A stretch of 31,612 nucleotides of DNA. Origin: a virus. Lineage: Duplodnaviria > Caudoviricetes. The position numbers and the translations under genes were made by a program. Location: positions 1 to 31,612 of the IMG/VR virus record IMGVR_UViG_3300034190_003036; one strand, given 5' to 3'. Shown here in pieces: positions 1-29,659 of the stretch (within the stretch, counting starts at the first letter, position 1; the number at the start of each line of letters is the position of its first letter). Below the pieces are notes generated by a model, which was not told where the DNA came from, ran no database searches, and saw only the letters and a list, made by a program, of their open reading frames with translations.

Positions 1-3000
1 CGCTTTTTCACCACCACCTCTACATCTTCCTTGTGGATTTTGTAAAGCGGTTTGACAGAATAAATCTTTATCTGGATCTTCAGAATCACAAGATATGTTA
101 ACTTCATCTGCATTGAACACAACATCTTTTATACAGTCAAGACACCAGTAGTCGTTGACACCATCATCATTGTCATCACAACAGTTCAATCCGTCCTCGA
201 CTTGACCACCGCAACAATTAGCAGAGGGACCGTGTTCACCCGCTGGTAAACCATGACCACAAGGATCTTGTGATGAATCCTCGGACCAACTTTGGAACGC
301 TGCGTTTATATCACTAGCACGTTGAATACAATCATTCTCTGTAATTCCATTCGTGCATTCACTAAAATTACATGAATCAACTACATTTCCGAGACAACAC
401 CTACCAACAGGATCGCCAGGAATATTACATGGATTACCAGCACATGTCGCAGGATATGGTGTAAACACATCATTTACACCTGTGCAGTCACTCTGTGGAA
501 CAACATCACAAGATTCACATGCACCACCGTTGTTGCAGTTTCTACAGCATCTACCCACATCAGGTATACATGGGTTTTCATTACAAAGAGTATTTGGTTT
601 AAAGTCACCACCAACAGAAATACACTCAGTCTGTGTTCTGTTTTGACAATCAAAGAATCCATTTCCAAGATCGACACAGCAAGCATAAGTAGGTGCATAA
701 CAACCAGCCTGTTCACAATCTTGAATACCAACCGCTCCACCCTGACCACCTTCGGATGCAGGACCGTACCATGTTCCTCCAGTAGAGATACCATTAGTCA
801 GTGCTTCACATTCAGATTTTGTTCTTTGGGTACACTCTCCAAAATCAATTTCTCCATTACCGTTCGCATCAAAACAACACGCATATCTGTCTAAATCAAA
901 GTTACAAATTCCTTCGAGTAGTTCTCCGTTTGTGTCATTCCAAGATCCACCAATATTATCACATTCACATTTAGGTATGAGTGAAGATGTTCGTGTTGAG
1001 TTTTGACAACATGTTCCTCTTTCGAGTGATCGATCAAAGTAATTAAAGTTTGAATCATAGTTCTCAAGAAGTGATGAGCAACTGTAGAAGAAAGGATTGA
1101 TTCCGTAAGGTGTGCTTGTTCTCAATTGACATGTTGCACCAGTAATAAGATATTGGAAATTACCAATTGAACTTAACCAACCATCAAATCCGATAACACC
1201 AAAATTATCACCCTTCCATCTTTTTGGAGTTATAGGTGTGTCATCTGCAACAGGGGGAGAAAAAGGCCATCTACTATTTCGATGAAGACAAGAATACTGG
1301 TTTTGCGTTTCGTTGCATGAACCACAAGAGCAACACGGTCCCGTAGGTAATGCTGTTGAACAAACAACATTACCTTCTTGAATTCCATCAATCGCATCTC
1401 CACCGTCAGGCTCAGTCACGATTGGATCACTAGCAGTTCCTAGTATTGGAGAGCAGCCTGGTGTAAACTTACCAACGTACATAATTCGGAAACCACCGAT
1501 ATTATAATAATTACCCTCAACGAATGATTGATTTGCTTCGTTTTGTATGTCGAACAGTCTAAGTGTAAATAACGCACTCGCGTTCACATCTTTTTGCTCA
1601 GTCAATCCATCCTGTAATATATGACCTTTATATGATCTAACACTACCCACATCACCTGTCTCGATGTTTTGATAGAATATTTCATTAGTTGACATATTAC
1701 CCTTCGACACAGAAGAGGACCAAATATTACCTTGTAAGAATGAAGTATTATTAGCGATCAATCCAAATCGTTTTCTTTGCAGTGCAAAGAAGTGAAGTTC
1801 TTCTTTCGATGGAACATAAAAATTATTTCCAGATCCGATGGGTTTCACTAGTCCTGAGGGATCTACAGCATGACCAGGCGGAGTGTTGTGTTGTAATACA
1901 ACATCATATACTTCATTAACTTGTTGTAGTTTCTTCCACAAATTATTTTGTTCATTCGTTGGATCATAACGATCTGTGATTGATACGATTGATGGGTAAA
2001 GACCTCCAGACGCTAAATAACCGTTTGCAATTCGTCCTTCACTTTGCACGTTGTCCCAGTAACCTTCTAAAACACCACCAAAATATTCAGTTGCTGGTGT
2101 TTCTGGACTATTACTTCCTGATGAAATTAATCCAACGTAATTTAGCGGACCTGCTTTTGTTTGAACTGTAGAACCATATCCCCAGTCCCACTCTGCTTCT
2201 GCACCATCTGGATCAACATTATAATCAAACGACCAATACCAACCATGAGTATTATAGTAACCATCATTTTGTCGTGTCACTGCATGAATGACTTGTTCTG
2301 GTGCTTCCGTTGCAAAATCTAAACCACCCCAATAGTAAGGACCATCATCGAAAACTTGCTCTGCAACAGGATCACCTTCGACGTTAAACATAAACATATG
2401 CCAAGAGGTTCTATTTTCAATCTCAGGACAGTTGCTTTGGGTGCAATCAGGATCACAACCACCAATAAGTGTATGACATGTATCGCCTGGATAGAACTGA
2501 CAATTAGAACAAAGAATACTTTCTTGATCTGGTGGTCCGAAAGTATCGTTTCTTAACGAACATTCAAGTTGAGTGATTCCGTGTACGCAACCACATCCAT
2601 CGCAACAACATGCTCCAGTTGGTAAATCACCATCATGCTCGCAGCAGTCAATATCAAAGTCAGTGCAATTTTTACCAACACCTTGGAATACACCACCTTC
2701 TTCATAACATTGTGTAGGACCATAATCATCACGACACACTTGACCGAAACAACACGGACCCCTCAGTTGATCGCAGCAGTCTCCTGACCAATCAAAATCA
2801 GGATCGGGAACTCCGCACAATGTACCGTCTCCTTGATACTCACCGTTGAGAGCATCGCACTCTGCACTATCTGTGTAAACACAAACACCAGACAAACAAC
2901 AAGCACCTTTACCTGTGCAGTCAATACAACCAGCGATATCATCGGGAGGATTGATGTTACAACCAACACCTTCAGCACAGTTGAATCCTAATTCCTGCGG

Positions 3001-5292
3001 TGTACCTTGTTGCCAGTTATCTTCACTTCCTGTGATTTCCACACAACTCTTTTTATCATAAGGCCACAAGTAGTCACATCCAAGACCCGCTTCATCTTGA
3101 ATACGATATGGGAAGCAGCAAGTTCCCATGATCTCTGCTTCAATCTGTTGTGCTTGTGCTTGACAGTCGCAACTACAGGTTGGATTACTACAGATCGCCT
3201 CAGAGACTGAATCATAATTTTCACCAGTCACGGGATCAGTTGCAAATCCAGTGATCCACGCTTGAGGATATGGATCAACTTCTCTGTTCCAACGAATCAA
3301 GTTTGCACAAAGATCAGAGTCTTTGTTAGCGTTATCGATCAGTTGTTGAATCTCATCTTGATCACCGATTTCCCACTGAATGATACCAGAGTCTTTGTCA
3401 CACCATGCACCGATCCAAATCTCTCCCTGCGGGTATGCATTACCACAACAAGTTGTATCATCTCCAAAGTATCTACCATCAATTAAGACATTATCACAAA
3501 TGTAGTCACTTGTTTCACTACAGATGGTAACGAATGAATCATTAGGGTCTTTCGAGCAACACGATCCAGTCGGACAGTATGGTTCTGGACATGGATTTTG
3601 CAGACATGAGGAATCTAAACCATTAAAGTTTCCGCCTAAGTCAGCACACTGTTGTTCAGACAACTCGATACAACTGTTACACAAGTTCACGGGATCGTAG
3701 AAACAACATGCTCCCTTCGGTAAGATTGGTTCATCACACGGATAACCATTACAATCAAGTCCCTCTGTGTCGCAGTTTACGCCTGGTATAAAGTAACCAC
3801 CAACGAGATCGCATTCTGTAGCGTTACTTCGAACACAAGTTCCCATCGTGCAGCAAGCGCCCTCAAAAGTTTCACACTCTGCATCTTTACATAGAGTTTC
3901 CTCAGAGAACGCTGTTCGAATCGCATCGGTATTTTTATCTTGACACTCCGCACGAGTTGTATATTCTTCGCATCTTATAAAACTACCATCACTAATTAAG
4001 AATTCACAACACGATCCTAATTGATTTTCATCCAGACCTAATCTTGAGTCTCCTGTGTAACCAAGACTTGGATTGAGTGGTCGCCACTTAAACAGTCCAT
4101 TTTCTTTCACACGATTAAACGTAAAGATGTCAACACCATCAGAGAACTCAAACTCCTCCCACGGTGTTGGGGTTAAACTGTCTGGGTCGCTTGCATAACC
4201 TTCACCCCAACTAAATTTCTCAGATGTTCTTGCCTCAAAAATATCAATACTATTTGAAAGTGGATTCAGATCTAAGTTTGGATTACCAGCAACAAGTCCA
4301 GCGTTTTTACCACCCTGAACAATCACCGTTAAGTTATCGATAATGTCATGAGTTGCACCACTAGGTGTTTCTGCACTAGGCAATCTAATATAGCCTGTTG
4401 TTGCACCACAGTGAACTTTGTGAATATTTCCTTCATTGATGTCTATGTTTACATCAGTTAAGGTATCTTCAGCGTGTCCGACTGCATAAACAGTAAAACC
4501 TCTAACATTACCATGACGACGAATAATCTCTCTTTGTTCACCAATTCGTAAAGATAAACTTTCGTGATAGGCAGAAGCACCCTCGACAGGTGTATATGAT
4601 AAAGAACTCGAATGGAAGAATGTTCCACTCGCACCATCAGCGTATGAACCACCCAGTGTTGACATGAATAATAACTCACCAGTGAGTCCCATGTCAATTC
4701 CATCAGGAGCGTTTGCTGCAATACCTTGTAAGAAAATCGTATCATTAACGATTTGAATCTCTACGTCACCACCTTCAGATATGGTTTTAAAGAAAGCAGT
4801 TGCACCAGTCACACCAGCAACGATAGATACACCATCACCTACGGTGATAATTTTTAGTCCACCTGTTGTTCCTGTTGTGCCTGTAGGACCACGAATGTCA
4901 GCAGCGACACCGTTATAAATGCCACGGTTGTATAAACCTGGCACAGTAAATGTGAAACCACCACCTGTCGTTCCTGTCTCACCAAAGAAAACTAAAGAGT
5001 GTTGTTGAGGACTACCACATATTCCAACAAATCTATAGGTTTTAAAATCATAAGTGCGAGATCCCTCTGGTGCAGTGGGACCACAGTATCCTAGACCAAA
5101 ACCTCTTGGTCCTTGTGGTCCAGTCGCACCAGTTGGACCAGACGCACCTGTAGATCCCTTTGGACCTGTACCAGCAGATAAAGTAATACCACCAACAGAA
5201 CTACCACCAGTACCACCAGTTGGTCCAAAGACTGGAACCGCACTACTGCTTAAACTTGAAGAGACATTTTGTGGATTACCTATGTAGTTCAC
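1..5292 (-). CDS. Giant Cys-rich virion/fibre protein, partial (>1764 aa, 3' end outside window): collagen-like N-terminus, fibre module, ~14 GACC-type repeats, internal DUF1566/Lcl-like domain
   Basis: Not in the ORF track because it has no stop in the window. Manual translation from GTG at 5292 (SD GAGAGGA at 5297-5303): MNYIGNPQNV...GPKGSTGASGPTGATGPQGPRG...GACCFYDPVNLCNSCIELSEQQCADLGGNFNGLDSSC...FYVPSKEEL...IWSSS...; no in-frame stop found down to position 1. Confidence 0.9.
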   Translation of the reverse strand, partial: MNYIGNPQNVSSSLSSSAVPVFGPTGGTGGSSVGGITLSAGTGPKGSTGASGPTGATGPQGPRGFGLGYCGPTAPEGSRTYDFKTYRFVGICGSPQQHSLVFFGETGTTGGGFTFTVPGLYNRGIYNGVAADIRGPTGTTGTTGGLKIITVGDGVSIVAGVTGATAFFKTISEGGDVEIQIVNDTIFLQGIAANAPDGIDMGLTGELLFMSTLGGSYADGASGTFFHSSSLSYTPVEGASAYHESLSLRIGEQREIIRRHGNVRGFTVYAVGHAEDTLTDVNIDINEGNIHKVHCGATTGYIRLPSAETPSGATHDIIDNLTVIVQGGKNAGLVAGNPNLDLNPLSNSIDIFEARTSEKFSWGEGYASDPDSLTPTPWEEFEFSDGVDIFTFNRVKENGLFKWRPLNPSLGYTGDSRLGLDENQLGSCCEFLISDGSFIRCEEYTTRAECQDKNTDAIRTAFSEETLCKDAECETFEGACCTMGTCVRSNATECDLVGGYFIPGVNCDTEGLDCNGYPCDEPILPKGACCFYDPVNLCNSCIELSEQQCADLGGNFNGLDSSCLQNPCPEPYCPTGSCCSKDPNDSFVTICSETSDYICDNVLIDGRYFGDDTTCCGNAYPQGEIWIGAWCDKDSGIIQWEIGDQDEIQQLIDNANKDSDLCANLIRWNREVDPYPQAWITGFATDPVTGENYDSVSEAICSNPTCSCDCQAQAQQIEAEIMGTCCFPYRIQDEAGLGCDYLWPYDKKSCVEITGSEDNWQQGTPQELGFNCAEGVGCNINPPDDIAGCIDCTGKGACCLSGVCVYTDSAECDALNGEYQGDGTLCGVPDPDFDWSGDCCDQLRGPCCFGQVCRDDYGPTQCYEEGGVFQGVGKNCTDFDIDCCEHDGDLPTGACCCDGCGCVHGITQLECSLRNDTFGPPDQESILCSNCQFYPGDTCHTLIGGCDPDCTQSNCPEIENRTSWHMFMFNVEGDPVAEQVFDDGPYYWGGLDFATEAPEQVIHAVTRQNDGYYNTHGWYWSFDYNVDPDGAEAEWDWGYGSTVQTKAGPLNYVGLISSGSNSPETPATEYFGGVLEGYWDNVQSEGRIANGYLASGGLYPSIVSITDRYDPTNEQNNLWKKLQQVNEVYDVVLQHNTPPGHAVDPSGLVKPIGSGNNFYVPSKEELHFFALQRKRFGLIANNTSFLQGNIWSSSVSKGNMSTNEIFYQNIETGDVGSVRSYKGHILQDGLTEQKDVNASALFTLRLFDIQNEANQSFVEGNYYNIGGFRIMYVGKFTPGCSPILGTASDPIVTEPDGGDAIDGIQEGNVVCSTALPTGPCCSCGSCNETQNQYSCLHRNSRWPFSPPVADDTPITPKRWKGDNFGVIGFDGWLSSIGNFQYLITGATCQLRTSTPYGINPFFYSCSSLLENYDSNFNYFDRSLERGTCCQNSTRTSSLIPKCECDNIGGSWNDTNGELLEGICNFDLDRYACCFDANGNGEIDFGECTQRTKSECEALTNGISTGGTWYGPASEGGQGGAVGIQDCEQAGCYAPTYACCVDLGNGFFDCQNRTQTECISVGGDFKPNTLCNENPCIPDVGRCCRNCNNGGACESCDVVPQSDCTGVNDVFTPYPATCAGNPCNIPGDPVGRCCLGNVVDSCNFSECTNGITENDCIQRASDINAAFQSWSEDSSQDPCGHGLPAGEHGPSANCCGGQVEDGLNCCDDNDDGVNDYWCLDCIKDVVFNADEVNISCDSEDPDKDLFCQTALQNPQGRCRGGGEKA

Positions 5293-14877: not shown

Positions 14878-16553
14878 GACGAAAGAACTTCCAAGTCACC
14901 GACTTTAGTTGAGAACAAAACCGCTCCCTGTGCTAAAACAGTATTTGATCTAGGTCTTGCTCTAATCTTAAACTCATCAGTATTTTGAATATCGTTAAGT
15001 TGAATCAAACCAGTTTCATAATTTACTGATCCTACATTTTTTATAAAAGTTGCATCCTGAGCGGAGAACATTTTTATAATTCCTCTACCATCATCGAAGA
15101 CGTAAACTAGAGGGAATGACCCGTTTATATTCGCTAGGAAGTTAGTCGATCTAACTACGCCTGGTAGATTTGTTCTCTGTAACTGGTTACGGAGAGGGAT
15201 GGTATCAGATATAGAGCCTTCTTCAACTGTTCTCTCCATATAAACCTCTAGTGTGTCTCCAATGATCCCATCATCTAAACTTGTTAAACCTACAGAGAAT
15301 ATTGGATAGTTGAATGCAACATCAAATGCTCCTCTCTGGTAACCGTTTATGTAATCTACAATATTTGACGTAACAACATCTAGACTTGTACCAGAACGAG
15401 TTGCATCCCAGAAAACGTTACCCTCTATAACTAAGTCTACAGGAATTGGTTCAACGAAAGTAGGAAGTATTGTTACCACTCCCTTATCTTTCATAAGACT
15501 CAACACGTTACTTTTTTGTCCAGAGGTCAATGGACCACCATCTACACCAACAGCACTCACATAAACTCGTCCGTAATTAGGAGGTTGATTTTCCTCACCA
15601 CCCCACACATTAGCACGAATTCCAGATTGACTGATTCCTGCTAAGTGATCGGATGCTGTCACATATCTACCCTGTGTTTGAAAGAACAGTGGGGCGTTCG
15701 TACGCACACTTTCAATATCTTCTACTTCTGATCCACCCACACCTGCTACAGTGGTTGTGATTACTGATACACCAGATGTATTGCTCACAAACTGAGCGAT
15801 GTTATTACCATTTGGACCAGCGGTTTCAAAGTATTCGAATCGAACCAATGCTTGATTGTTAGGTTTTTTACCTACAAAGTTATCACCGAAGTAAACTGCG
15901 TACTTGCCTCGTGTGCTTGTTGTTAAGTAATAAATTTTAGATTCAGCGGTGACACCAGCGATACTGCCTGGTAAGTCCGTAATATTCGTATATTCACTCT
16001 CTTGTCCGTTACCATTATCAACATAAACTCTTAAAGTATTTGTATCAACATTCTGTGACGGAATTTCAAATTTTTGATGATTTATAGATGAATCGTACTG
16101 ATAGAATCTATCATTTATCTGTTGACCTTGATATAACTCAATCTCTGTATCACCCGATACGCCGTATGATCTAACTGGGGTCCACTTTAGTCCACCACCA
16201 ATGAAGAGATCGCCTGGTTTGAGATTTGTTGTTCCTCGCACAATAACTTGCGCCCTTGCACCTTTTGTCGATGCAGGAAGATATGACAAAGGTTTTGCAT
16301 GGGAAAAAACGGATTCTGCTCTTTGTGCTGTATCGAGGAACCCTTCGTTCGCAATCATGTTTGCGTAATAACCATAGAGTGTAGAGTTATATGCTAACAA
16401 GTCCAGCAGTGCGGACATCGCAGATCCCTCGAAGTCATAATCATTGAATATTCCAGAACCTTGTAAATAATTTCCAAGGTCGGTTCTCAATTGACCAAAC
16501 TCAAGATCTCCTAGTTTAATGAAAGGGCGATCCCCTTCGTATATCTCAACCAT
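14874..16553 (-). CDS. gp6: Baseplate wedge subunit gp6
   Basis: DYDFEGSAMSALLDLLAYN, NE.FLDTAQR, FGD...GKKP, AP.FF.TQGRYVTASD, VWGGEENQPPNYGRVY, G.VNYETG motifs. Confidence 0.93.
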   Translation of the reverse strand: MVEIYEGDRPFIKLGDLEFGQLRTDLGNYLQGSGIFNDYDFEGSAMSALLDLLAYNSTLYGYYANMIANEGFLDTAQRAESVFSHAKPLSYLPASTKGARAQVIVRGTTNLKPGDLFIGGGLKWTPVRSYGVSGDTEIELYQGQQINDRFYQYDSSINHQKFEIPSQNVDTNTLRVYVDNGNGQESEYTNITDLPGSIAGVTAESKIYYLTTSTRGKYAVYFGDNFVGKKPNNQALVRFEYFETAGPNGNNIAQFVSNTSGVSVITTTVAGVGGSEVEDIESVRTNAPLFFQTQGRYVTASDHLAGISQSGIRANVWGGEENQPPNYGRVYVSAVGVDGGPLTSGQKSNVLSLMKDKGVVTILPTFVEPIPVDLVIEGNVFWDATRSGTSLDVVTSNIVDYINGYQRGAFDVAFNYPIFSVGLTSLDDGIIGDTLEVYMERTVEEGSISDTIPLRNQLQRTNLPGVVRSTNFLANINGSFPLVYVFDDGRGIIKMFSAQDATFIKNVGSVNYETGLIQLNDIQNTDEFKIRARPRSNTVLAQGAVLFSTKVGDLEVLSS

Positions 16554-17041
16554 TACCCTACCCTCTCTGTGACTATTTTAATATCAACAGTTTCTACTGC
16601 TGATGAAGTTACTGATTTTAGACGATATAAAATTCTAACGTTTAGTGTATTTTCATCTCTAGTATCTAGAACTGAAACCTCATCAACAATAATTCGTGGT
16701 TCAAATAAATCGAGTTGTTCTTTTATCTCTTCCTCTAGTTGAAACATACCCACACCAGGCAAGTTAGATTCAAATGGATCAAAAAGAAAATTTCTTACAC
16801 CTACACCGAAGTTAGTGTTAAATGGTTTTTCAAATTTGTTTGTAAGCACGATAGTCCTAACAGATTGTCTAATAGAGTCTGAGTCGAACACCCTAAGAAC
16901 ATCACCACTCAAACCCTGACTGACGTAAAACGGAGACGGTTTGAAAAAGAAGTTTAAGTCAGAATATAGTTTATCCTCAGTTGAACTTTTCGTTGCAACT
17001 TCACTACCCGTAAACCCTGAGTTTCTGACGTATACTGACAT
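16553..17041 (-). CDS. gp25: Baseplate wedge subunit gp25 (GPW/gp25 family)
   Basis: YSDL.F.F, SIRQSVR.IVLTN.FEKPF..NFG, FEPRI motifs; TAATG overlap with gp6. Confidence 0.92.
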   Translation of the reverse strand: MSVYVRNSGFTGSEVATKSSTEDKLYSDLNFFFKPSPFYVSQGLSGDVLRVFDSDSIRQSVRTIVLTNKFEKPFNTNFGVGVRNFLFDPFESNLPGVGMFQLEEEIKEQLDLFEPRIIVDEVSVLDTRDENTLNVRILYRLKSVTSSAVETVDIKIVTERVG

Positions 17042-17057
17042 GGCTGATTCCTCTACT

Positions 17058-17065
17058 TATTTATA
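17058..17065 (-). promoter_or_regulatory. T4-type late promoter TATAAATA
   Basis: Exact consensus in the intergenic gap upstream of the GAGGA SD and gp25 ATG. Confidence 0.8.
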
Positions 17066-17068
17066 TTC

Positions 17069-18487
17069 TTAAGATTGAACATATAAACCATCTCTTACAC
17101 AAGTCATAATATTCGTGTGTCTTCCTCCCTTTTGGAAAGTATGCTTGATACCAACAATTAACCACTTACCATCTAAAATTGAGTATGCATCCGCACCAGG
17201 CTCTCGTCCAGTGATTCCCTCAATATTTACTGATGGTGCGTTTTTTAATTCAATAATCATACCAACCTCTAATCCAAAATCGCCTGGAACAGTAATCATT
17301 ATCTCAGATGATCTTAATTGTGTTTCCTGTGCTTTTCGCAGCAGTGGAGTATTCAGGGGGGTGTTCCAAAAACGAACGTCTTTACTTGCAACATACTCCA
17401 GATACTCTGGATACTTTTCACCATAGTTTGGGAAGTTGCACTCAGTAACGTATTTAGGAAGAGTTTTTAATATTATATCAGGATCTACACAACCACAAAC
17501 ATCAGATGTAAACCCACCATCTGGCGGAATGACCAATCCAGTTTCTTCATCTACATCAGCCTCAGCACCGCAGACATATGATCCTGCAACATCTTGGTAG
17601 GGAGGTCTAGCATAATGATCCTTCACCGTAAAATCAGCAGGAGAGAATGTTACTCCCTGTTGTCCATGATCGATATCCATGAATTCTCTTTTATCGAATA
17701 GATCATCGTCTAACCAACCTTCCCACCACCATGTGTCTAGATCAGTTCCAACATACTCTTCTCCGAGTCTTTCACGAATTAATTCACATTCAAGTTTTAG
17801 ATTTTCATTTATCTCAGTTCTTAAAAATTCACATATTGCTTTTGTATCGTCGCAACCATCCTCACTAATTTCTGTAATAGAACGAGTCTCACCCTCAAGA
17901 TCTATAAATGTAGGAGGGGGACCAAAATCTGGTGGTGTAAAGTCCTCTTCATTATTCTCTGCTATTTTTTGTAAAGTATCAGTGATGTAATTTCTATACC
18001 TACACTCTCGATAGGCATCTTGAATTGATTTTATAAATTTTATTTGCTCTATAAGTTCATTTCTTAGTTCTTCGATTATGCGAAACTGATCTATATCTAA
18101 GTCTGTGTATGAATACCACGCATGTTTTGAATTACCTAAACCAAGATTAGCGGTGTATCGAAAACCATAACTGTCAAAATCATCTGTCAATACAGATGGT
18201 TCAGGTATCATAGGGTCGTCAAAATCCTCTTCTATAGAAACTGGAGGGTAATCTTCAACATGCTTAGTCTTACCCCAATCTTCTCGAATATCATAAGTTG
18301 CTCCTTGGGTTACAAACTTATCTTCGAGATCGTATCGATTGGTGCTATATTTTACATGCGGGACTCTATAAGATACGGGTTCGAGATCGTAATGACACTC
18401 CGCACGAACGGTTTCAAACGGTCGCTGTCTTTCGAGTGTAACATCATCGAGTCTGGTTTTTGATTCTTCTAATTCTTCGTATCCCAT
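17069..18487 (-). CDS. Acidic protein ending in the C-terminal part of a gp27-like baseplate hub
   Basis: Last ~80 aa ITVPGDFGLEVGMIIEL...DGKWLIVGIKHTF...TNIMTCVRD match the final barrel segment of gp27/gpD/VgrG-type hubs; the first ~380 aa are not recognised. Confidence 0.75.
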   Translation of the reverse strand: MGYEELEESKTRLDDVTLERQRPFETVRAECHYDLEPVSYRVPHVKYSTNRYDLEDKFVTQGATYDIREDWGKTKHVEDYPPVSIEEDFDDPMIPEPSVLTDDFDSYGFRYTANLGLGNSKHAWYSYTDLDIDQFRIIEELRNELIEQIKFIKSIQDAYRECRYRNYITDTLQKIAENNEEDFTPPDFGPPPTFIDLEGETRSITEISEDGCDDTKAICEFLRTEINENLKLECELIRERLGEEYVGTDLDTWWWEGWLDDDLFDKREFMDIDHGQQGVTFSPADFTVKDHYARPPYQDVAGSYVCGAEADVDEETGLVIPPDGGFTSDVCGCVDPDIILKTLPKYVTECNFPNYGEKYPEYLEYVASKDVRFWNTPLNTPLLRKAQETQLRSSEIMITVPGDFGLEVGMIIELKNAPSVNIEGITGREPGADAYSILDGKWLIVGIKHTFQKGGRHTNIMTCVRDGLYVQS

Positions 18488-18496
18488 AGTTGCTCC

Positions 18497-18508
18497 TATT
18501 TATTTATG
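18497..18508 (-). promoter_or_regulatory. Candidate late promoter (overlapping CATAAATA/AATAAATA)
   Basis: ATAAATA twice, immediately upstream of the AGGAG SD and ATG at 18487. Confidence 0.6.
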
Positions 18509-21500
18509 GTTCTCTTGGTCGTCCGCCATTATAGGGATTGCAAATTGATTCTTGACAATCTTCTGGTGGAGCATTCTCGTTTGCTTCGGGATAGTCTCTC
18601 CCTCGAACACAATGCGTTCCCCGATAGTGTCTCTCTGACAGGTCGATCTGACTTGTCATGTAATCAAATAATCCAAGACCTTCGGGTGATTGGATATCAG
18701 TGAATGCTGCAAGTCGTTCTTGATTTTGACCTCTACACGATGGATATTCATTATCCCAACCATCGGATTGCTGTATGGGCCACCCATCTTCTTCTGATGG
18801 TCCTGTGATACCATAGCGATTTAAGAATACTCTGTTACAACTGTTGGCTAACCACTCTCCCTCATCAAGAGGATAATATTCATTACTTGCCAGAGGTAGA
18901 TCCTTTGATGGTAATGATGACACATAAAATTTTGTAAAGGCAACTTGCTCGTCTAAGTCATAATATAAAGGTTGACCAGTTTCCTCGTCAATAATAGGTT
19001 CTCCTTCTTCGTCTGTTATTGAATCGTATTCGTCTCGTATTTTTTCATACAAATTTCTCAAGACATATTCCCACGGAGGATATACACCTATATCATCACT
19101 GTAGTTACCGTGTGTGGGATCAAAGGAGAAATATATTTGTGCTGGATATGGATTGATCTTACCCGATGGTAATCTTTGTGGACCAAATCTTTCAACTATT
19201 TTATCAAACAAGTATTGAGTGATACCATCGTTTCTCTCTTCGAAATGATTCCAGTAAAAAGCAGGAGCATCTGGACTTTCTAGTTCTTCTTTGCTTAATT
19301 TTTTCCATCCTACAAAAGGCTCACTGTAACAATTTCTATCCTCTGTGCATAAAGGCTCTAGTTCTACAATCTGACACTCATCTTCGTCAGGACTTACTCC
19401 GTTTACGCACTCGATGTCATTCGCTGTGTAAACATGTTCAAACGGTAAATCAAAACATTGAGGAGGTTTTGGTGGACACGCTCTTGGTAAATCATCTAAT
19501 CCACTTCCTAATCGACCATCCAAATCATTACAGTGTGAAAATCCTACTGGACCATCTGGTGCAGGGGTAACGTCGTTAGGTTCTCCATCGTCACCGATAA
19601 ATTCATACTCAACACACTTTGCGATACATCTGTGACAATCACATTGACAAGTATCGGGTTCATATTCGTCATCTACACATGGCTTATCCACATCCACTTC
19701 GAAACCACAAGTATGATATTCACTACACCTCCATCCTGAGATTGGTCCAAAACCGAAACTGTTGTAAAAGGGACTCTGTATAAGATCTATATCTTCTGGT
19801 ACTACATCACCTCCTACAGAATAAGGTTGACACGGGCCCTCACCTGCTTCACCATCACAAACTCTATATCGTTCAAACTCATCTCCAACACTCACCTTTC
19901 CCTCGTCAAGATACTCCTCTAAATTATAGAATCCCTCAGTTGGAAACTTCACAACGTAACTTGGTCTGCATAAACTTCTTGCTAAAAATTTTGCTGGATC
20001 TTCCCGTGGATCAACAATCGGAGGTGGATCAAAAGGATTGAAGACACTTGGATATAAGTCTTCATAGTCGTAAGCACAACAAAATTCTTTTTTCTTTTCT
20101 AAGAATGATTTAATATATTCTAAGACATACTCATTGACTTGTGTTTGATCTTCGAATACATCCTCTTCGTCTACATCGGAACCTCCTATGTCAATAGGAA
20201 AATCAATTCCTAATGACTCAAACAATTGTTGCCGATAACTAAAGATTAATTCATTAGTAACAGGATCTAGTATTACAGAAGCGAATATCCCCCCGAAGGA
20301 ATATGATATAAAATCATCACAAAGGGGATAGTCTGTTGATGGACAATAAGGTGTCGGATAGAATGCTCTGCTTTTTCTGCAAGCACAACTATCACTACTC
20401 CACATTCCTCCTTCGGGGGAATCTACCTCATAACTATCGAGACTTATAATCCCACTGCTTAAATCACATAAATCTCCATATGTGTCACTATTTTCGCCTG
20501 GAGTTAAATTATCACAATCAATACAGTCACACATTCTTACGTTATCATTACACTCTCCATTTTTGCAGCATGAACCATAAGGATTGTATGGCTCAGGATC
20601 TCCACATACTGACTCCCCGTTTTGATGTCGCTCACCACACGGAAGATTTTTATAAACACCTCCAAATCTCCCACAACATGATTCTGGTATTGAATGGGCG
20701 CAACGTCCATTTATACAACATGTCCCACCTAACGATGGATCACCACCCTCTTCTGGGTCGGGTGGATTACAAATACTACTTATGTCGAAACAGTCATAAT
20801 TTACGCAATCTGAATTGAAATAATCAAAAATACTTGAAGGCCCCTCAGGTCCAGTATAACAACAATCCCAGTTGTCAGGTTTTAAACAAGGGAGACTCCC
20901 TGGCGTTCCACAACCATCCCCGTAATCTCCTGGCCATGGGATTGTGTTGCAGTAAGTACCTACCCCTCCATATATCGTTCCACCTTGGTAGTTTTCGGCG
21001 GCTAATTGCAATCCTAACGATTCACATCCACTCTGTGACATAACTGAACAATATGTGACATTTTCCGATTCATACTCTGGTTTATAAAACGCACAACACC
21101 CGCCTGGACAAACCGTACAATGATCTCCACCAACTGTCAGACATGGCGCTAGTACGTTGCTTACGTCACAACCTTCTTGTATGGCTGCTGCATATTTCTC
21201 CGCATAAGATCTGCTGCATGCCGATCCTGAAGCACTAAAATCACAAACATCTTCTTCTTCTTCATCACATCTACAATCTACGTCCTCACATACAGTGTTA
21301 TCTCCCTGCCATCTACCACCTATATCATCACAACTTAATGTTGCTGGGTTTGAGTCAGATTTTGTACGCTCACTACATCCACCCACTGTGCAGCATGCAC
21401 CATAGATAGGATCTTCGCATCTTTCTTGACAAGGATCATCTTCGCACGATAGATCAACATCACAGAAAACATTACAAATCGACTCTGTTTGAGGCTCGTA

Positions 21501-22037
21501 TTCTGGTGGATCTGAGCCTGGGATTATCTGCTCAATAAGTTCACCGTCTGGAGTTCTTCTATTTGTTCTTCTTTGATCTCCACAATTAGTGTCTTCTCCC
21601 TGAAACTCACCACCTAATTCATTACACTCTAATTCTGACGTATCATCTACGCAAAAGTCAGGAACATTCACTGGACTGTTACAGAAACAACAAGCACCCT
21701 CTTCATCGTTTGAAGATTCATCAATACATTCTGAATTACAAACCTCTAAATTCTGTGTGCAAACGTAATCCGTAACTGGTTGAACAAAAACCTCAAGTCC
21801 TACACGCACCAAACCCGTTTCTTCATCAACAAAATCATTATCGATAAAATATTTTTCAGCGTTAACTTTAGGATGTATTTCATCCTCGTCCTGAAGACAA
21901 AACGGTGAACAGGGTGTAGCGTAATTTTCTATAATAGGAACATCTGCGACAAGACTGGGAGGAATACCAGTCGGACCATAATGTATAAATGCTGCGACAC
22001 CAATATCGTCACAACAGCACATGCGATGCATACTCAT
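18504..22037 (-). CDS. Large acidic Cys-rich protein with GACC-type repeats, probable tail-tip/hub-associated structural protein
   Basis: Begins MSMHRMCCC; GACC, GACC, GGCC, GTCC, GSCC units such as GACCTVGGCSERT...CDDIGGRWQGDNTVCEDVDC; very D/E-rich; GAGG SD; lies between the two hub halves. Confidence 0.7.
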   Translation of the reverse strand: MSMHRMCCCDDIGVAAFIHYGPTGIPPSLVADVPIIENYATPCSPFCLQDEDEIHPKVNAEKYFIDNDFVDEETGLVRVGLEVFVQPVTDYVCTQNLEVCNSECIDESSNDEEGACCFCNSPVNVPDFCVDDTSELECNELGGEFQGEDTNCGDQRRTNRRTPDGELIEQIIPGSDPPEYEPQTESICNVFCDVDLSCEDDPCQERCEDPIYGACCTVGGCSERTKSDSNPATLSCDDIGGRWQGDNTVCEDVDCRCDEEEEDVCDFSASGSACSRSYAEKYAAAIQEGCDVSNVLAPCLTVGGDHCTVCPGGCCAFYKPEYESENVTYCSVMSQSGCESLGLQLAAENYQGGTIYGGVGTYCNTIPWPGDYGDGCGTPGSLPCLKPDNWDCCYTGPEGPSSIFDYFNSDCVNYDCFDISSICNPPDPEEGGDPSLGGTCCINGRCAHSIPESCCGRFGGVYKNLPCGERHQNGESVCGDPEPYNPYGSCCKNGECNDNVRMCDCIDCDNLTPGENSDTYGDLCDLSSGIISLDSYEVDSPEGGMWSSDSCACRKSRAFYPTPYCPSTDYPLCDDFISYSFGGIFASVILDPVTNELIFSYRQQLFESLGIDFPIDIGGSDVDEEDVFEDQTQVNEYVLEYIKSFLEKKKEFCCAYDYEDLYPSVFNPFDPPPIVDPREDPAKFLARSLCRPSYVVKFPTEGFYNLEEYLDEGKVSVGDEFERYRVCDGEAGEGPCQPYSVGGDVVPEDIDLIQSPFYNSFGFGPISGWRCSEYHTCGFEVDVDKPCVDDEYEPDTCQCDCHRCIAKCVEYEFIGDDGEPNDVTPAPDGPVGFSHCNDLDGRLGSGLDDLPRACPPKPPQCFDLPFEHVYTANDIECVNGVSPDEDECQIVELEPLCTEDRNCYSEPFVGWKKLSKEELESPDAPAFYWNHFEERNDGITQYLFDKIVERFGPQRLPSGKINPYPAQIYFSFDPTHGNYSDDIGVYPPWEYVLRNLYEKIRDEYDSITDEEGEPIIDEETGQPLYYDLDEQVAFTKFYVSSLPSKDLPLASNEYYPLDEGEWLANSCNRVFLNRYGITGPSEEDGWPIQQSDGWDNEYPSCRGQNQERLAAFTDIQSPEGLGLFDYMTSQIDLSERHYRGTHCVRGRDYPEANENAPPEDCQESICNPYNGGRPREP

Positions 22038-22040
22038 ATA

Positions 22041-23747
22041 TTATTCCTCTTCAGCGCCTTCTCGCGTTGTCTCATCCTTACAATCCTCGGTAGACTCACC
22101 ATCACCACCTTCAACATCCTCTTCATCACACTCTCCATCCACTGCGTTCTCAGCAGTAAAGAAGTAATGAGGTTGATTATCTTCTGCGAAGTATACTTTC
22201 ATATCAACGATAGGGAAAGACCCCAACACAGGAAAATCATCTAAATCTGTGGTTACACTTTCGAAAGTATCAAAACACTTCGCCCATTGTTCGATGACAT
22301 TGTTTTTCATCGCAGGTTCATCACCACTTGGAGTGATTGGTTCACTTACTTCCAGTCCATCCTCATCTTGTTGCTCACGATTCACAACACGACAGAAAGA
22401 GCCTCGGATTGGTTGTATCTTCATACAACTATCTTCCCAAATTTCAGTGTCCAGTCGATAGCCTGGTGCTTCCCATCCTCTACGTTCCTCGTAATCATAG
22501 TAAGCATCATTACCTTGTTCCATAGTATTAAAGGCTGGTCGAGCAAAAATATTAACGTCACTGTACGGACCATTTAAAACAAAAGGATAAACACGAGTAT
22601 CGTCCTCGTCATCAGGATCTTTTTCGTGAACGACCCATGATCGCAACCCACCACGTTCAATCGGTTTTACCAACCAGTTAGGTCTGTTTTTCTCATAATC
22701 AAAAGCAAGATAGACTTCGACCCATGCGTATCTCCACTCAGCAAATCCTTTTTCTATTTGTTGAAATCCGAAGATTGCAGCAGGAAAGTGATCTTTTTGT
22801 CTACAATTGATTCTAAAATAAACTGTTCCAATAGAATCACGATACCACCTTTTATACTTCTCAGCATCGGGTCGGGGTCTGTAAAACTTCATGGTATTTA
22901 CTAAAGCACCAGAATTTTTTAATCTTAATGTATCTGTGTGTCGGATGACACTAAGATTTATAATTCTTCTTTTTTGATTTTCAGCAGTTGAGGTAACTCC
23001 ACCTTTAAAAGTTGCAACAGGTTCTCCATCACCAATAAGTGACTCGATTGACTTAAAGTTATATGCACCATACTTATCTTGATAAAAGTAAAAGTTTACT
23101 GCGTTTGGATTCTCGCTGTGAATAGAATTTTCTGCAAGTTGAAACAACAACTCAAACGGTTTCTGTTCATCGTCTTTTCTAATGACAGGATATGCACCCT
23201 GAGCAGGTTTATAATAAACGCTATTACCTGTCTCTTCAATATTAGGTGTCTCGAAACCTAGTTGTGCCGCCTCGGTGACCTTCTCAACAAGTTCGCTAAT
23301 TTTACCCTTAAAGTATGGATCTCCTTCTTCACCTGTAATTTCAAGATGTTGTGTAGTCTCATTATTCTCTAAGTAAGCGACATCAGCGAAAGACAAAGCA
23401 TACGCTCTACCTTGAACTACACCGCCCTCATCACCGCTTAAATCAATCGGAAGTATGGAGTATATGCGAAAGTTACAGCAAAGATTTTTAACCCCATCGC
23501 CTACTGACTCAGGTGTTTCAAAAGTAAGTGAAATATACACTGGACCTTTATCAAGTTGCAGTTCTTCCGCCCATCCAGTGACATCAATAACTGATGCTGC
23601 ACCACTTAAACAAGGATCGAACATATTTTCAAACAGTGATAAAGCATCTAAGGCTCCGTGTTTCAATAGGTCGTATTGACCTACATCGGTGAGTATGGAC
23701 GCATCTGTTATATTTACATCAAATTGAGATACAATTTCTTCTGCCAT
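22041..23747 (-). CDS. N-terminal part of a gp27-like baseplate hub fused to an extra C-terminal domain
   Basis: LSLFENMFDPCLSG...IDV and NFYFYQDKYGAYNFKSIESL are hub motifs of marine T4-like phages; follows gp53; C-terminal WRYAWVEV...PAFN..E..N...QPI...YFF..ENAVDGEC domain is not hub-like. Confidence 0.75.
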   Translation of the reverse strand: MAEEIVSQFDVNITDASILTDVGQYDLLKHGALDALSLFENMFDPCLSGAASVIDVTGWAEELQLDKGPVYISLTFETPESVGDGVKNLCCNFRIYSILPIDLSGDEGGVVQGRAYALSFADVAYLENNETTQHLEITGEEGDPYFKGKISELVEKVTEAAQLGFETPNIEETGNSVYYKPAQGAYPVIRKDDEQKPFELLFQLAENSIHSENPNAVNFYFYQDKYGAYNFKSIESLIGDGEPVATFKGGVTSTAENQKRRIINLSVIRHTDTLRLKNSGALVNTMKFYRPRPDAEKYKRWYRDSIGTVYFRINCRQKDHFPAAIFGFQQIEKGFAEWRYAWVEVYLAFDYEKNRPNWLVKPIERGGLRSWVVHEKDPDDEDDTRVYPFVLNGPYSDVNIFARPAFNTMEQGNDAYYDYEERRGWEAPGYRLDTEIWEDSCMKIQPIRGSFCRVVNREQQDEDGLEVSEPITPSGDEPAMKNNVIEQWAKCFDTFESVTTDLDDFPVLGSFPIVDMKVYFAEDNQPHYFFTAENAVDGECDEEDVEGGDGESTEDCKDETTREGAEEE

Positions 23748-23748
23748 A

Positions 23749-24876
23749 TTAAAGAACTATTCTATTATCTACGGGGTTGATTGGAACTGCAAAACGACGA
23801 TCCCTCACATCTTGGAATCTAGTGCTAAACTCTTTGATTGAATACTTATCTGAATTCAAGGCATCTCTAAACAATTTAAAAGCCTCAGACTTGAACTGAG
23901 GATCTAATAATCTTAACTTACCTCTGCTAATTGGAGATTCGAATCCTGTTTGAATATACACATCATCATTTACATCATCATTAGTAGTTGGATTATTTGT
24001 AGACGGAGGTGTGTAATAAACTGCTGCGTAGTCTTGGTCATAGGTGCTACCTACATCCGAACCTAAAAATCCATTTATGATTGTATTTGTATAATTGATT
24101 GGGTTCACGATGGGATCTCCGTTTGATCTTTTCACTGCACCTTCATTCGCTGACGCTCCAGCGATTTTAGTAGTTTTAATATTATACAAAGGAGATATCG
24201 GAAAACCAGTCTTTTTTGATTGGAATCCAACGAGTTTTTGATCTTCGGGTTGTTCGACTCTCTTTATCTTACCGATGACTTGGTTTGATCCTTGATTATC
24301 AAATGTCAAAACATGTTGATTTCCACGCAGTAAACTCTTAGCATTTGCATTGTTTGGAATTACTGTTGCTTTACGAAGTGTCTGATCCCACCGAGTAATT
24401 TTGTATACTGAATATTCACCATTATTTAATACGGGTTTGGGTAATTTTCTTACTTCACCAGATCGCACATAATCTTCAAAGGGTACACCTGCTGATGATG
24501 CAAGAATTAAAAAATCACCCTCTTTAAAATCCTGTGTTTCAGTTCCGCCAGTTTTTTCGAGATACACAGTCAGTTGTGATCCATAAAGATCTTCTATACC
24601 TCTGTCAAATCCAGTTCTTGGAAATTCACTAAAAGGATTGATTGTATTGGTAAACAAACAAACTAACCACCAATAGTCTTCAGTACCATAAACTTTTTTT
24701 GCGATAATATCTGGTGTGTCTCCGAACTCTATAAAATAATCGAAAGTTGGTCTATTCGTTTCCGCATAAGGTTGGAACAAAAAAGATACTCTACGAAATA
24801 CGTCCAACATTTCGACACCATAGATATCCTCAAAAGGAAAGTCGTAATTAAGTTTTGGGAATTGTTCAAAAAACAT
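23749..24876 (-). CDS. gp53: Baseplate wedge subunit gp53 (LysM-like)
   Basis: MFFEQFPKLNY, DVFRRV, YFIEFGDTPDIIAKKVYG..DYWWLV.LF...INPF.EFP, LRLL.P motifs. Confidence 0.88.
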   Translation of the reverse strand: MFFEQFPKLNYDFPFEDIYGVEMLDVFRRVSFLFQPYAETNRPTFDYFIEFGDTPDIIAKKVYGTEDYWWLVCLFTNTINPFSEFPRTGFDRGIEDLYGSQLTVYLEKTGGTETQDFKEGDFLILASSAGVPFEDYVRSGEVRKLPKPVLNNGEYSVYKITRWDQTLRKATVIPNNANAKSLLRGNQHVLTFDNQGSNQVIGKIKRVEQPEDQKLVGFQSKKTGFPISPLYNIKTTKIAGASANEGAVKRSNGDPIVNPINYTNTIINGFLGSDVGSTYDQDYAAVYYTPPSTNNPTTNDDVNDDVYIQTGFESPISRGKLRLLDPQFKSEAFKLFRDALNSDKYSIKEFSTRFQDVRDRRFAVPINPVDNRIVL

Positions 24877-27411: not shown

Positions 27412-27602
27412 CCCTTTCTCACGCATCTCTGAGAACTCATTACGTTCTCAACTTTCAACTGATGCAGCATCATAACTGGTCACTTGAAGAAATAGAATCT
27501 ATGATGCCATGGGAAAGGGAAGTTTATATTCTTCAATTGCAAAAATGGTTAGAAGATGAAAAGAAAAGAATTGAAGCAAGAAACTCTCGTATGAAACGAT
27601 AA
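27399..27602 (+). CDS. gp51: gp51-like baseplate hub assembly segment (frameshift extension of gp26, or 46-aa ORF from ATG 27462)
   Basis: Manual translation FFQLTLSHASLRTHYVLNFQLMQHHNWSLEEIESMMPWEREVYILQLQKWLEDEKKRIEARNSRMKR*, matching the NF.LMQHH.YSL.E.E.M.PWEREVY motif; absent from ORF track; TAATG overlap with next gene. Confidence 0.85.
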   Translation, partial: FFQLTLSHASLRTHYVLNFQLMQHHNWSLEEIESMMPWEREVYILQLQKWLEDEKKRIEARNSRMKR

Positions 27603-29659
27603 TGGCAAAAAAGGTAAAAAAGTCTACATTTAAAATACACGCCTTTGTAGAACTAGGTGAGGGACGTATCAGTGCTGAAAACGCTGGTTTGTTTGATGAC
27701 TTACTTGTTGTTGATAGCGTAAGACGTTTTGATGAGGAAAAAAGTAAGGTTATTTTTAAAACAACCAAACCAATGTCAAGAAAACAAGTTGACGAAATCG
27801 CTCAACGTTTTCTTGATGCGGGTGATGTCATAGAGATTGAAAAAATCGTTGACACAAAAGATTCTGTATTAAAAAGAACAAGAGATATTATTAGAAAAGG
27901 TGTGAAAGAAAGTATTGTTGGTCAGTTTAGAGCAATACCAGGCGTATCTTCTTTTCTTGAGGCAAAAAAACAAAGAGCAGAAGAAGAAAAATTCAAGCCC
28001 CGTACACCCGATGATGAGGGTGAAGCAGACGCTGATGGTGTTGGAGGTGGAGCCGTAGGGAATATAGGTGAAATTTCTAATATTCTACAAGATGGATTTT
28101 CAACTACACTTGATGCGATGATAGATGAGATACTTCCTCCAATTGTTCACATTGATGAACTATTAACTGACTACTTTGCGGGATTACCCACATCAGCAGA
28201 GGAAGCAGAAGAGAGAAGAGAGGCTAAAAGATTATCGAAAAAAGAAAGTGACGATAGAGAGGATGAATTAACGGCAGCGATGGGACTTGCAGGCGCAGGC
28301 GATGGTGATAGTAACACACTCGTTGAGGCATTAGGAGACGCAGCAGGAAGTATACTGGAGGGAACTCTTGTTGATGACGCGATTGCTGCTAGAATCGCTA
28401 CCCGTGGACTTGGTAGGGGTGCTGCTGGTGCTGCTGCTAGGGGTGCTGCTGCTAGAGGTGCTGGTGCTGTCGCTGCTGGTGCTGCTGGAAGTGCTGCTGG
28501 AAGTGCGGCTGGTACTGCGGCATCTGCGGCTGGTGGTGCTGCTGCTGGATCAAGAGCCAGAGCAGCAGGCGCGGCAGTCAGAGCAGGTTTAACGTCATTC
28601 ATGACTTTGATGGGAACCTCTGTTGGTGCTGCATCAATCGCTACTGTTGCTGGAACCGTTCTCGCTGGAGCAGGAATAGGCTATATTTTAGGCACAGCAA
28701 TATTTGATAATGTAATCAGTCCTGCGATGGATAAAAAATTTGAAAGGGATCTTGCTCGGATGAACAGATCATCAGCAAGAAGCATGGGTGTTGCACAAAC
28801 AGAGACAGGCGAAGATGCATTTATAATAACTGATGAAACTGGTAAAGAAAGAATAGTGGGTCGTAGCGAAGTCACTGATGAAATGATTGAGTCTGGTGAG
28901 GCGCGAGCCGCAACGTTCTTTACTGATCCTAATACGGGTCAAAGAATAGGCGGTGCATTCGGTGAAACTGTTCAAACTGGTGATGTAGGACCATCCGTAG
29001 CAGAACAGGTTCAAGCAGAAGATCCAGCAGCAAGAGCATTATCAGCGAGATACATTACTCCTCTTCGTATTTTAGAGGGAAGAATGGCAGCGATTGCAGA
29101 TCAAATTGTAAATGAGTCGGACGAGGGAAAGAAAACACAACTCAAAGAAACTTTTAGGGATCTTGCAAAAGAGTATTATACTAAGGTCGAACAATTAGAA
29201 GATGATTCTCTAATTAAGAGAGACTTAGGACCAGATAGATTCAATCAAGAACTTGAAAATTTAAAATCAACCATGTTTTATAAAATGGGTGATAAGATGA
29301 CAGGTGGGTTTCTTGGTCTTGGAGCATCATTATCTCCTCGTATGGGTTTCGGTAGTTTTCATGAGGCGCTTCAAGAAATCGCTTCGGGTAATGTCGTTGG
29401 TGTTGATGATACAACCACTAGTTTAGGCGCAAATACTGGGGGGTCATTAACAACCACTGTTATAAATGCGAATAATGATGTTGAAAATGCTAGAGGATCT
29501 GAAACGACACAAAATAATAGTGTAGGTATGGTAAATAATACTCAGTCTAGTATAAACTCAGTTCAAAATACGACTGTTTCTGGAGCGTCCACTCAGACAC
29601 AAAACGGATCATTTAGAGCATCTGCATCTGAGTCGATGCGAGGACAACTGCTTGCGTAA
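27602..29659 (+). CDS. Probable tape measure / gp29-like protein
   Basis: Follows gp26-gp51; helical charged segments, Ala/Gly-rich tract, hydrophobic GAASIATVAGTVLAGAGIGYILGTAIF stretch, N/S/T-rich C-terminus. Assignment is by synteny and composition. Confidence 0.6.
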   Translation: MAKKVKKSTFKIHAFVELGEGRISAENAGLFDDLLVVDSVRRFDEEKSKVIFKTTKPMSRKQVDEIAQRFLDAGDVIEIEKIVDTKDSVLKRTRDIIRKGVKESIVGQFRAIPGVSSFLEAKKQRAEEEKFKPRTPDDEGEADADGVGGGAVGNIGEISNILQDGFSTTLDAMIDEILPPIVHIDELLTDYFAGLPTSAEEAEERREAKRLSKKESDDREDELTAAMGLAGAGDGDSNTLVEALGDAAGSILEGTLVDDAIAARIATRGLGRGAAGAAARGAAARGAGAVAAGAAGSAAGSAAGTAASAAGGAAAGSRARAAGAAVRAGLTSFMTLMGTSVGAASIATVAGTVLAGAGIGYILGTAIFDNVISPAMDKKFERDLARMNRSSARSMGVAQTETGEDAFIITDETGKERIVGRSEVTDEMIESGEARAATFFTDPNTGQRIGGAFGETVQTGDVGPSVAEQVQAEDPAARALSARYITPLRILEGRMAAIADQIVNESDEGKKTQLKETFRDLAKEYYTKVEQLEDDSLIKRDLGPDRFNQELENLKSTMFYKMGDKMTGGFLGLGASLSPRMGFGSFHEALQEIASGNVVGVDDTTTSLGANTGGSLTTTVINANNDVENARGSETTQNNSVGMVNNTQSSINSVQNTTVSGASTQTQNGSFRASASESMRGQLLA
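28412..28585 (+). repeat. Degenerate coding microrepeat (GGTGCTGCT / GCT) encoding an Ala-Gly-Arg tract
   Basis: ggtgctgctggtgctgctgctaggggtgctgctgctagaggtgct...ggaagtgctgctggaagtgcggct. Confidence 0.8.

Follow-up and report, generated by a model that had tools for sequence, protein, structure and literature searches.

A gp27-like hub divided over two genes around a Cys-rich gene in an uncultured marine T4-like phage

The described tail-tip systems closest to the one considered here are gp27-gp5-gp5.4 of T4 and its cyanophage-like relatives, in which a 'tail protein' hub of ~420-475 amino acids (aa) occurs together with gp5. One account treats the complex of hub and spike as essential and gives the parts of the spike as an OB-fold plus a beta-helix (10.1101/2025.08.28.672839), and the second barrel of T4 gp27 has been given as residues 207-239 plus 307-368 (PMC3004832). 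Hub and OB domain lie in one chain in VgrG, a gp27-gp5 fusion, and in Francisella both have been proposed in PdpA, the spike being a separate short protein (PMC5924787). In lambda, gpL (HDI) and gpJ (HDII-IV) share the hub, and a loop of HDIV carries an OB domain (PMC11101478). At the tip, orf205w of RB43 has been described as a non-PAAR gene in the tip locus, and gp37-gp38 as a trimer capped by a monomer (10.1101/2025.08.28.672839). In this study, a T4-like baseplate operon was analysed on the minus strand of a 31.6-kb virus record (IMG/VR IMGVR_UViG_3300034190_003036; the whole stretch of 31,612 nucleotides is hereafter called the window), whose source is an uncultured marine T4-like phage. 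Its gp27-like hub is divided over two open reading frames (ORFs), with a gene for a Cys-rich protein between them.

As in T4 and the cyanophage-like phages, the hub has the gp27 fold and PHROG 350 homology, the order gp53-hub-gp25-gp6-gp7-gp8 is kept, and an OB domain is probably present under the hub. Unlike in these systems, the hub is in two chains; the probable OB domain (domain X) is fused to the N-terminal chain and is not detectably gp5-like in sequence; a beta-helix, lysozyme and PAAR were not detected; and the locus holds a ~300-aa insertion and, inside the hub locus, a variable gene whose product starts with the motif CCC (the CCC gene). As in VgrG, hub and OB domain share one chain, but in contrast to VgrG and PdpA-VgrG the OB domain joins the chain partway along the hub, a second gene encodes the remainder of the hub, and the partner protein is rich in Cys instead of being a beta-helix. 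The lambda gpL and gpJ likewise share a hub between two chains and include an OB domain; however, the lambda tail is non-contractile, its hub is cut where HDI meets HDII, not within the second barrel, and its central fibre is fused to gpJ. RB43 orf205w and gp37-gp38 are comparable in the non-PAAR gene of the tip locus and in the monomer capping a trimer, which is proposed here, but in RB43 gp5 is still present and the hub is intact. Every part of the layout has a precedent. A reading made from the sequence alone (the sequence-only reading) had not recognised the architecture as described, and no account of a T4-like hub cut in the second barrel with a needle-less OB domain was found in the open-access literature, supplements aside.

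The two chains of the hub

The genes on the minus strand follow the order gp48, gp53, three ORFs of 568, 1177 and 472 aa, gp25, gp6, gp7, gp8 and fibre genes. The first of the three ORFs (22041..23747) encodes the hub N-chain, composed of the hub core, a linker, domain X and an acidic tail. The middle ORF (18504..22037) encodes the Cys-rich protein, with 7.4% Cys and 19.5% Asp+Glu. The third (17069..18487) encodes the hub C-chain and is preceded by an AGGAG ribosome-binding-like site. The gp25 gene (16553..17041; PF04965, E 4e-13) follows directly, leaving no slot for gp5. The ORFs, the ITVPGD / GKWLIVGIKHTF / RD motifs in the sequence and the position of gp25 immediately after the split hub were all as the sequence-only reading had placed them.

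PHROG 350 matched both hub ORFs, the first with aa 32-293 against profile positions 34-277 (E 9e-13) and the third with aa 384-467 against positions 349-427 (E 7e-10). When 17 unsplit hubs taken from fetched loci were used as the canonical reference for hhalign, aa 5-292 of the first ORF covered canonical positions 4-268 (99.8%), and aa 375-470 of the third covered positions 322-411 (98%). A further piece of the third ORF, aa 61-78 (18254..18307), corresponded to canonical positions 273-290, weakly against the canonical hubs alone (hhalign E 0.37) and at 95% against the contiguous piece of one-gene relatives; in unsplit hubs this is the strand right after the break. Because of this complementary coverage, the cut is placed between canonical positions 268 and 273. 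Since the third ORF holds the piece at aa 61-78, the cut is clean, and the block of ~300 aa is an insertion inside the C-chain. The N-chain therefore supplies the first barrel, the second domain and the first strands of the second barrel (aa 1-292, 22872..23747), and the C-chain supplies the second half of the second barrel (aa 375-470, 17078..17365). What the two ORFs cover of an ordinary T4-like hub is complementary, and the split is real. The clade-specific insertion (aa 79-374, 17366..18253) replaces ~30 aa of the canonical hub and consists of a long helix-like segment, Ia, and a Cys-rich segment, Ib. Of the part of the C-chain that the sequence-only reading had called unrecognised, aa 61-78 belong to the hub; for aa 79-374 no family was found in Atlas (best score 0.88). 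Searches of PDB sequences with alignments A1, A2 and A6 gave nothing below E 0.25.

The structure model of the first ORF had a mean predicted local distance difference test (pLDDT) score of 58 and was good only for aa ~10-240. Within it, residues 4-243 matched 9f4a_BE 2-206 (VIA Z 12.0, root-mean-square deviation (rmsd) 3.5, 194 residues aligned), and the top Foldseek matches were T4 gp27. The first beta-barrel and second domain of a gp27 hub were thus recovered by model match, and the second barrel was recovered in sequence by hhalign, divided over the two ORFs. Given the limits of the second barrel in T4 gp27, the two chains would complete that barrel together, and it is very probable that they reassemble into a hub. 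The two-chain gp27-like hub proposed from the sequence alone was therefore borne out by the PHROG 350 halves, the hhalign coverage and the T4-type model of the N-half.

An invariant Cys at both new ends is found only in layout D, the layout of the window (the layouts are defined below). Cys315 (22803..22805), near the end of the hub part of the N-chain, was present in 28/28 sequences of alignment A1, and C31 of the C-chain in 11/11 covering rows and, by pattern, in 15/17. The matching junction was without Cys in all ten non-D proteins in which it could be located by pattern (16 tried). The two residues may staple the chains and are candidates for an inter-chain link.

The N-chain ORF and the middle ORF share a frame, with only TAA plus one codon between them. 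This would suit an assembly error, a pseudogene, or chains rejoined by readthrough, RNA splicing or protein splicing, all of which appear very improbable here. The stop codons were confirmed, so that the hub is not a single polypeptide, and the C-chain ORF lies in another frame, with an AGGAG site of its own. The proteins were 100% identical across three IMG/VR contigs, and positions 16900-23900 were spanned without substitution, gap or joint by contigs of all four runs, from four studies, any of which may be the source of the window itself. The layout is kept at 30-61% identity despite varying spacers. Rfam gave no match in the window that would indicate introns or RNA elements, the model of X is an OB-fold, and no intein was among the matches listed. 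The 19 main holders of the stretch were seawater, marine, estuary and biofilm metagenomes, with no RNA holder among those listed. The split is not an assembly artefact, and explanations by artefact or rejoining are already largely refuted.

The T4-like contractile-tail set in the window comprised gp53 (23749..24876, minus strand, directly upstream of the hub; PF11246 and phrog_232), gp25, gp6, gp7, gp8, tube and gp26. After gp26, a 685-aa Ala/Gly-rich ORF without family match lies on the plus strand (27602-29659); it is probably the tape measure protein, judging from its position.

Hub layouts among relatives and the search for gp5

All loci that carry a hub N-part were annotated with profiles, which gave 92 distinct rows, near-copies included, in five layouts. 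Layout K (30 rows) has an ordinary hub of 415-567 aa; a gp5-OB gene was directly next in 24 of them, the profile having been trained on 14 of these gp5s, and of the remaining six rows, four run to the edge of the locus. An ordinary-size hub with no gp5-OB gene following within the locus was seen in L067 (5720-7114) and L068. Layout A (13 rows, three of them broken, possibly through sequence errors) is a single gene of 1560-1664 aa in the order N-Ia-~1000 aa-Ib-C. Layout B (18 rows) has two genes, N-Ia-X and Ib-C, with Ia undetected in two rows and the C gene in one. In layout C (15 rows, only four reaching the C gene within the 3-kb flanks), a Cys-rich gene lies between N-Ia-X and Ib-C. Layout D, the type of the window, is N-X / Cys-rich / Ia-Ib-C (16 rows, 14 complete and two cut by locus ends), and its middle gene varies from 339 to 1429 aa and from 5 to 18% Cys. 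No gp5-OB gene was among the next genes in view in any of the 62 rows of layouts A-D, all of which have the insertion, and every gp5-less form with a visible C-part keeps the helical, Cys-rich insertion inside the hub. Among hubs lacking gp5, the gene number thus ranges from one to three, and two breakpoints occur.

The one-gene relatives hold N, Ia, Ib and C in a single chain, so that related phages with the hub as one polypeptide, which the sequence-only reading had suggested looking for, do exist (1560-1664 aa), without X. In L043-L061 and L069, the one-gene hubs measure about 1560-1730 aa and share a conserved insertion of ~1000 aa; X and gp5 are both absent. A protein search for fused long forms found none among 5830 candidates of 1323-3775 aa; this is a weak negative, as the locus search did find them.

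In a maximum-likelihood tree of 69 hub N-parts, K stood apart from A-D (support 98/93), D formed one clade (98/92), and A was nested among the X-bearing B and C (100/99, 96/91, 99/93). With the root assumed on the K branch, this nesting indicates that X is ancestral and the one-gene form derived. Because the breakpoint of D differs from that of B and C, X must have been inserted twice or moved.

None of the 20 longest ORFs of the window matched a gp5 or PAAR family, in agreement with the earlier claim that neither occupies the usual slot between hub and gp25. Pfam Gp5_OB was found in none of nine clade records (G001-4, G006-10), while the control G005 rang. A purpose-built gp5-OB profile found nothing in the window, G001-4, G006-8 and G011, and its control, G012, rang. 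Altogether, gp5-OB was absent from ten partial clade records, five of them 49-68% complete, and PAAR (PF05488) from nine, with cellular genomes as controls. The hidden Markov model search of the genome that the sequence-only reading had proposed turned up neither gp5-OB nor PAAR in these records, all of them partial (17-68% complete). The window's phage is represented by a 51.7-kb record, about 24% complete; no clade record reaches 90%, and G007 and G008 were placed in the clade mainly by the X motif. The two beta-helix searches (PF06715/Gp5_C family and an octapeptide count) both missed their phage positive controls. A tail sheath gene was found in three of five clade records searched and not in the 51.7-kb record. 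Because the records are partial, the absence of gp5 is only likely; the beta-helix needle and PAAR appear to be missing.

A normal or very divergent gp5/PAAR pair could instead lie elsewhere in the genome, with the cassette only decorating the split hub. The genes 5 and 27 of T4 lie apart, and about three quarters of the genome of the window's phage lies outside its record. Moreover, the spike complex has been described as essential for baseplate assembly (10.1101/2025.08.28.672839). On the other hand, the gp5-OB searches were negative in ten partial records while their controls rang, PAAR was not found in nine, and X would occupy the gp5-OB site. A displaced pair is thus considered unlikely. 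As a side observation, a UDP-glucose/GDP-mannose dehydrogenase domain (PF00984, E 4e-25) was found in the clade member G006 (C1:9825-10118, minus strand).

Domain X

Domain X, for which the evidence comes from the family alignment A6, hhalign, a stand-alone model and a fold search, occupies aa 317-540 of the N-chain (22128..22799). It ends in Y-x-F-x3-N-x2-D-G-x-C, and the ORF stops 28 acidic residues after Cys540, with no beta-helix following. No meaningful match to X was found in Pfam or the PHROGs, and Atlas likened aa 300-545 to unnamed viral proteins of 131-161 aa. Among GenBank phages, the best match (Shewanella phage MSO-5, E 0.09) was rejected, as it fell in the head-tail region across two genes.

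A scan of viral contigs with the X motif gave at least 119 loci, the motif lying within 40 aa of the ORF end in 117/119 of the matches listed. Three kinds of ORF were involved: hub N-chains, proteins of ~457 aa from another group of phages, and stand-alone proteins. The stand-alone proteins, mostly of 160-190 aa and from phages of 45-66% G+C, follow a tape-measure-like gene (so labelled by size and sequence look) and a gene of ~260-320 aa. A CCC-type start lay at most 1 kb downstream in 11 of 14 stand-alone loci among the matches listed; of the other three, one was cut, one had a shorter Cys start and one was doubtful. The order in these unrelated phages (L157, L158, L161, L166, L169, L170, L178, L181, L188, L201, L211, L220, L221 and L229) is tape-measure-like gene, ~260-320-aa gene, stand-alone X, usually the CCC gene, and a small Cys protein. 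The tested genes of these loci had no meaningful PHROG match, and the set may be a tail-tip module, undescribed-looking. In the third context, the ~457-aa proteins (L154 1019-2389, L172 1753-3126 and similar) contain two X-like segments with the X motif at the end, and a conserved 214-aa gene follows them.

The stand-alone profile matched the window's X with the selection motif left out (hhalign 86.8%, E 4e-6), and in the 47-member alignment A6 the residues Y62, N92, E95 and V132, which had not been selected for, were invariant (47/47). Direct comparison of the window's X with the X' of the two-gene type was not significant (2.5%), the only link between the two being the stand-alone family.

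One stand-alone member gave a model with a pLDDT of 82. VIA-align compared this model with 48,161 chains, and the best 50 rows were considered. The best Z was 5.3, and baseplate or spike entries of phages and injection systems made up eight of the nine top rows and 16 of the 50. P2 gpV (Z 5.2, rmsd 3.8, 75 aligned), the R2 pyocin spike (Z 4.8) and the phi92 spike (Z 4.8) belong, together with Mu gp45, to the group of closest structural matches; the other baseplate matches were taken as spikes from chain size and range. Such spikes have been described as continuing into a beta-helix, in some with an HxH iron tip (10.1101/2025.08.28.672839), whereas X stops at D-G-x-C. Foldseek returned only weak rows, many of them OB-fold proteins.

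Several observations weigh against reading X as a spike domain. The folded protein is a stand-alone relative, 31% identical to the window's X in A6, and the model of the window's X itself was poor (pLDDT mostly 30-75). A Z of about 5 against spikes is middling and tied with unrelated OB-folds at 4.6-4.8; T4 gp5 was absent from the 50 best rows; and profile comparison failed to connect X with gp5-OB in sequence (hhalign <1%). That X is an OB-fold is nevertheless well supported by the model. Its spike lineage is probable only, because unrelated OB-folds score alike and sequence similarity to gp5-OB is wanting; that it acts as a spike base seems fairly likely. As a family member models as an OB-fold with baseplate and spike entries on top, a gp5-like base is probably still there as a fusion to the N-half. 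What the sequence-only reading called an 'extra domain' is probably itself an OB-fold of spike type. New here are the membership of the X family, including the stand-alone genes after tape-measure-like genes, and the OB assignment.

The Cys-rich protein and the proposed tail tip

The middle protein starts with an invariant CCC (Cys7-Cys8-Cys9, 22011..22019; 8/8 in alignment A8), followed by a conserved module of ~90 aa, G-x-C-C repeats and a conserved ERFG...INP segment. A Cys cluster opens the middle gene in 16/16 rows of the same layout. The 1177-aa protein had no Pfam or PHROG match. High variability combined with a fixed N-terminal anchor is what would be expected of a receptor-binding tip, and the protein is likely such a tip or appendage. 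Cys7-9 may be the anchor on an X trimer, and docking of the CCC protein on X is rated somewhat more likely than not. A reading of the window's protein as a VWA adhesin found no support: the D-x-[ST]-G-S motif occurs in five of 17 middle proteins, the window's not among them, and hhalign gave 1.4%. PF11775 (E 0.043) was found, among middle proteins, in L153 only. The middle genes of L153 (3101-3985) and L164 (1351-2145) encode short CCC proteins in which a VWA-like motif, LDYSGSM, occurs.

The explanation to which we lean, by a small measure, is a two-chain trimeric hub with a needle-less OB base that is capped by the Cys-rich tip through CCC, in place of needle and PAAR. The gp27-type hub would be made as two chains completing one trimer, with the break at a hairpin at the start of the hub's distal insert domain and the second barrel completed across the chains. 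Below the hub, three X domains would take the position that the OB domains of gp5 have in T4. With the OB base fused to the end of the N-half, the missing part would be the beta-helix needle and PAAR. Through disulfides or a shared metal, the N-terminal CCC of the tip protein could hold the C-terminal Cys of three X domains related by symmetry. The protein would then replace needle plus PAAR as a one-to-three adaptor and an exchangeable tail tip, and around it the ~300-aa insertion of the C-chain could make a collar or stalk. For the Cys-rich protein, its place in the virion, its docking and its role in receptor binding are all inferred. The earlier suggestion of a Cys-rich appendage instead of the spike would then stand for the appendage and not for the whole spike, as an OB-fold base is probably kept on the N-half.

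The distribution of the parts tells against this explanation. The 18 two-gene rows have no adjacent CCC gene, the one-gene forms have no X, and G002 gave 0 X matches; X and the CCC protein are therefore not essential in the clade, and the Cys-rich gene as a replacement, although found in the window's layout, is not universal, sister lineages being without it next to the hub. The substitute for the needle could instead be the insertion Ia/Ib itself, forming a trimeric axial stalk, with X and the CCC protein as accessory cargo, for example three lateral fibres with one CCC protein on each X. Ia and Ib are common to all four gp5-less layouts, the ~1000-aa block of the one-gene forms fills the slot that X has in the two-gene forms, and the two positions of X, before or after Ia, would suit flexible cargo. 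However, the one-gene forms are nested among X-bearing forms, so that X looks ancestral to the clade; the closest folds of X are axial spike domains; and in unrelated phages, the tail-tip gene slot is where stand-alone X is found. An axial stalk is the less probable explanation, though the main alternative.

In a capped OB trimer, which is preferred here, a contractile tail could work without a canonical piercing device, a likely role would be assigned to a large uncharacterised pair of phage genes, X and the CCC protein, and the hypervariable CCC gene would be a probable determinant of host range in uncultured aquatic phages. More tentatively, a widespread clade may have dropped beta-helix and PAAR, its OB trimer capturing one variable Cys-rich adhesin by CCC to three Cys; the adaptor and tip pair would be common to unrelated small phages, inserted or moved in the hub repeatedly, and tied to a shared host group with an envelope for which no needle is needed. 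The CCC and G-x-C-C style may point to Planctomycetota hosts; two scans of GTDB genomes for X found no relative on which a host assignment could rest.

A 771-aa gene with a CCC start lies elsewhere in the two-gene-hub genome G003 (L142 near 11856, plus strand) and is possibly a relocated tip gene. The open-ended ORF at window positions 1-5292 (minus strand) corresponds to L133 1752-13067 (minus strand) in the longer record of the same phage, a fibre gene of 3771 aa with collagen-like GPTG stretches, 13 G-x-C-C repeats and no Pfam match. Twelve of these 13 repeats matched the G-x-C-C family of the middle proteins at E < 0.001, both sets having been selected by the same short pattern.

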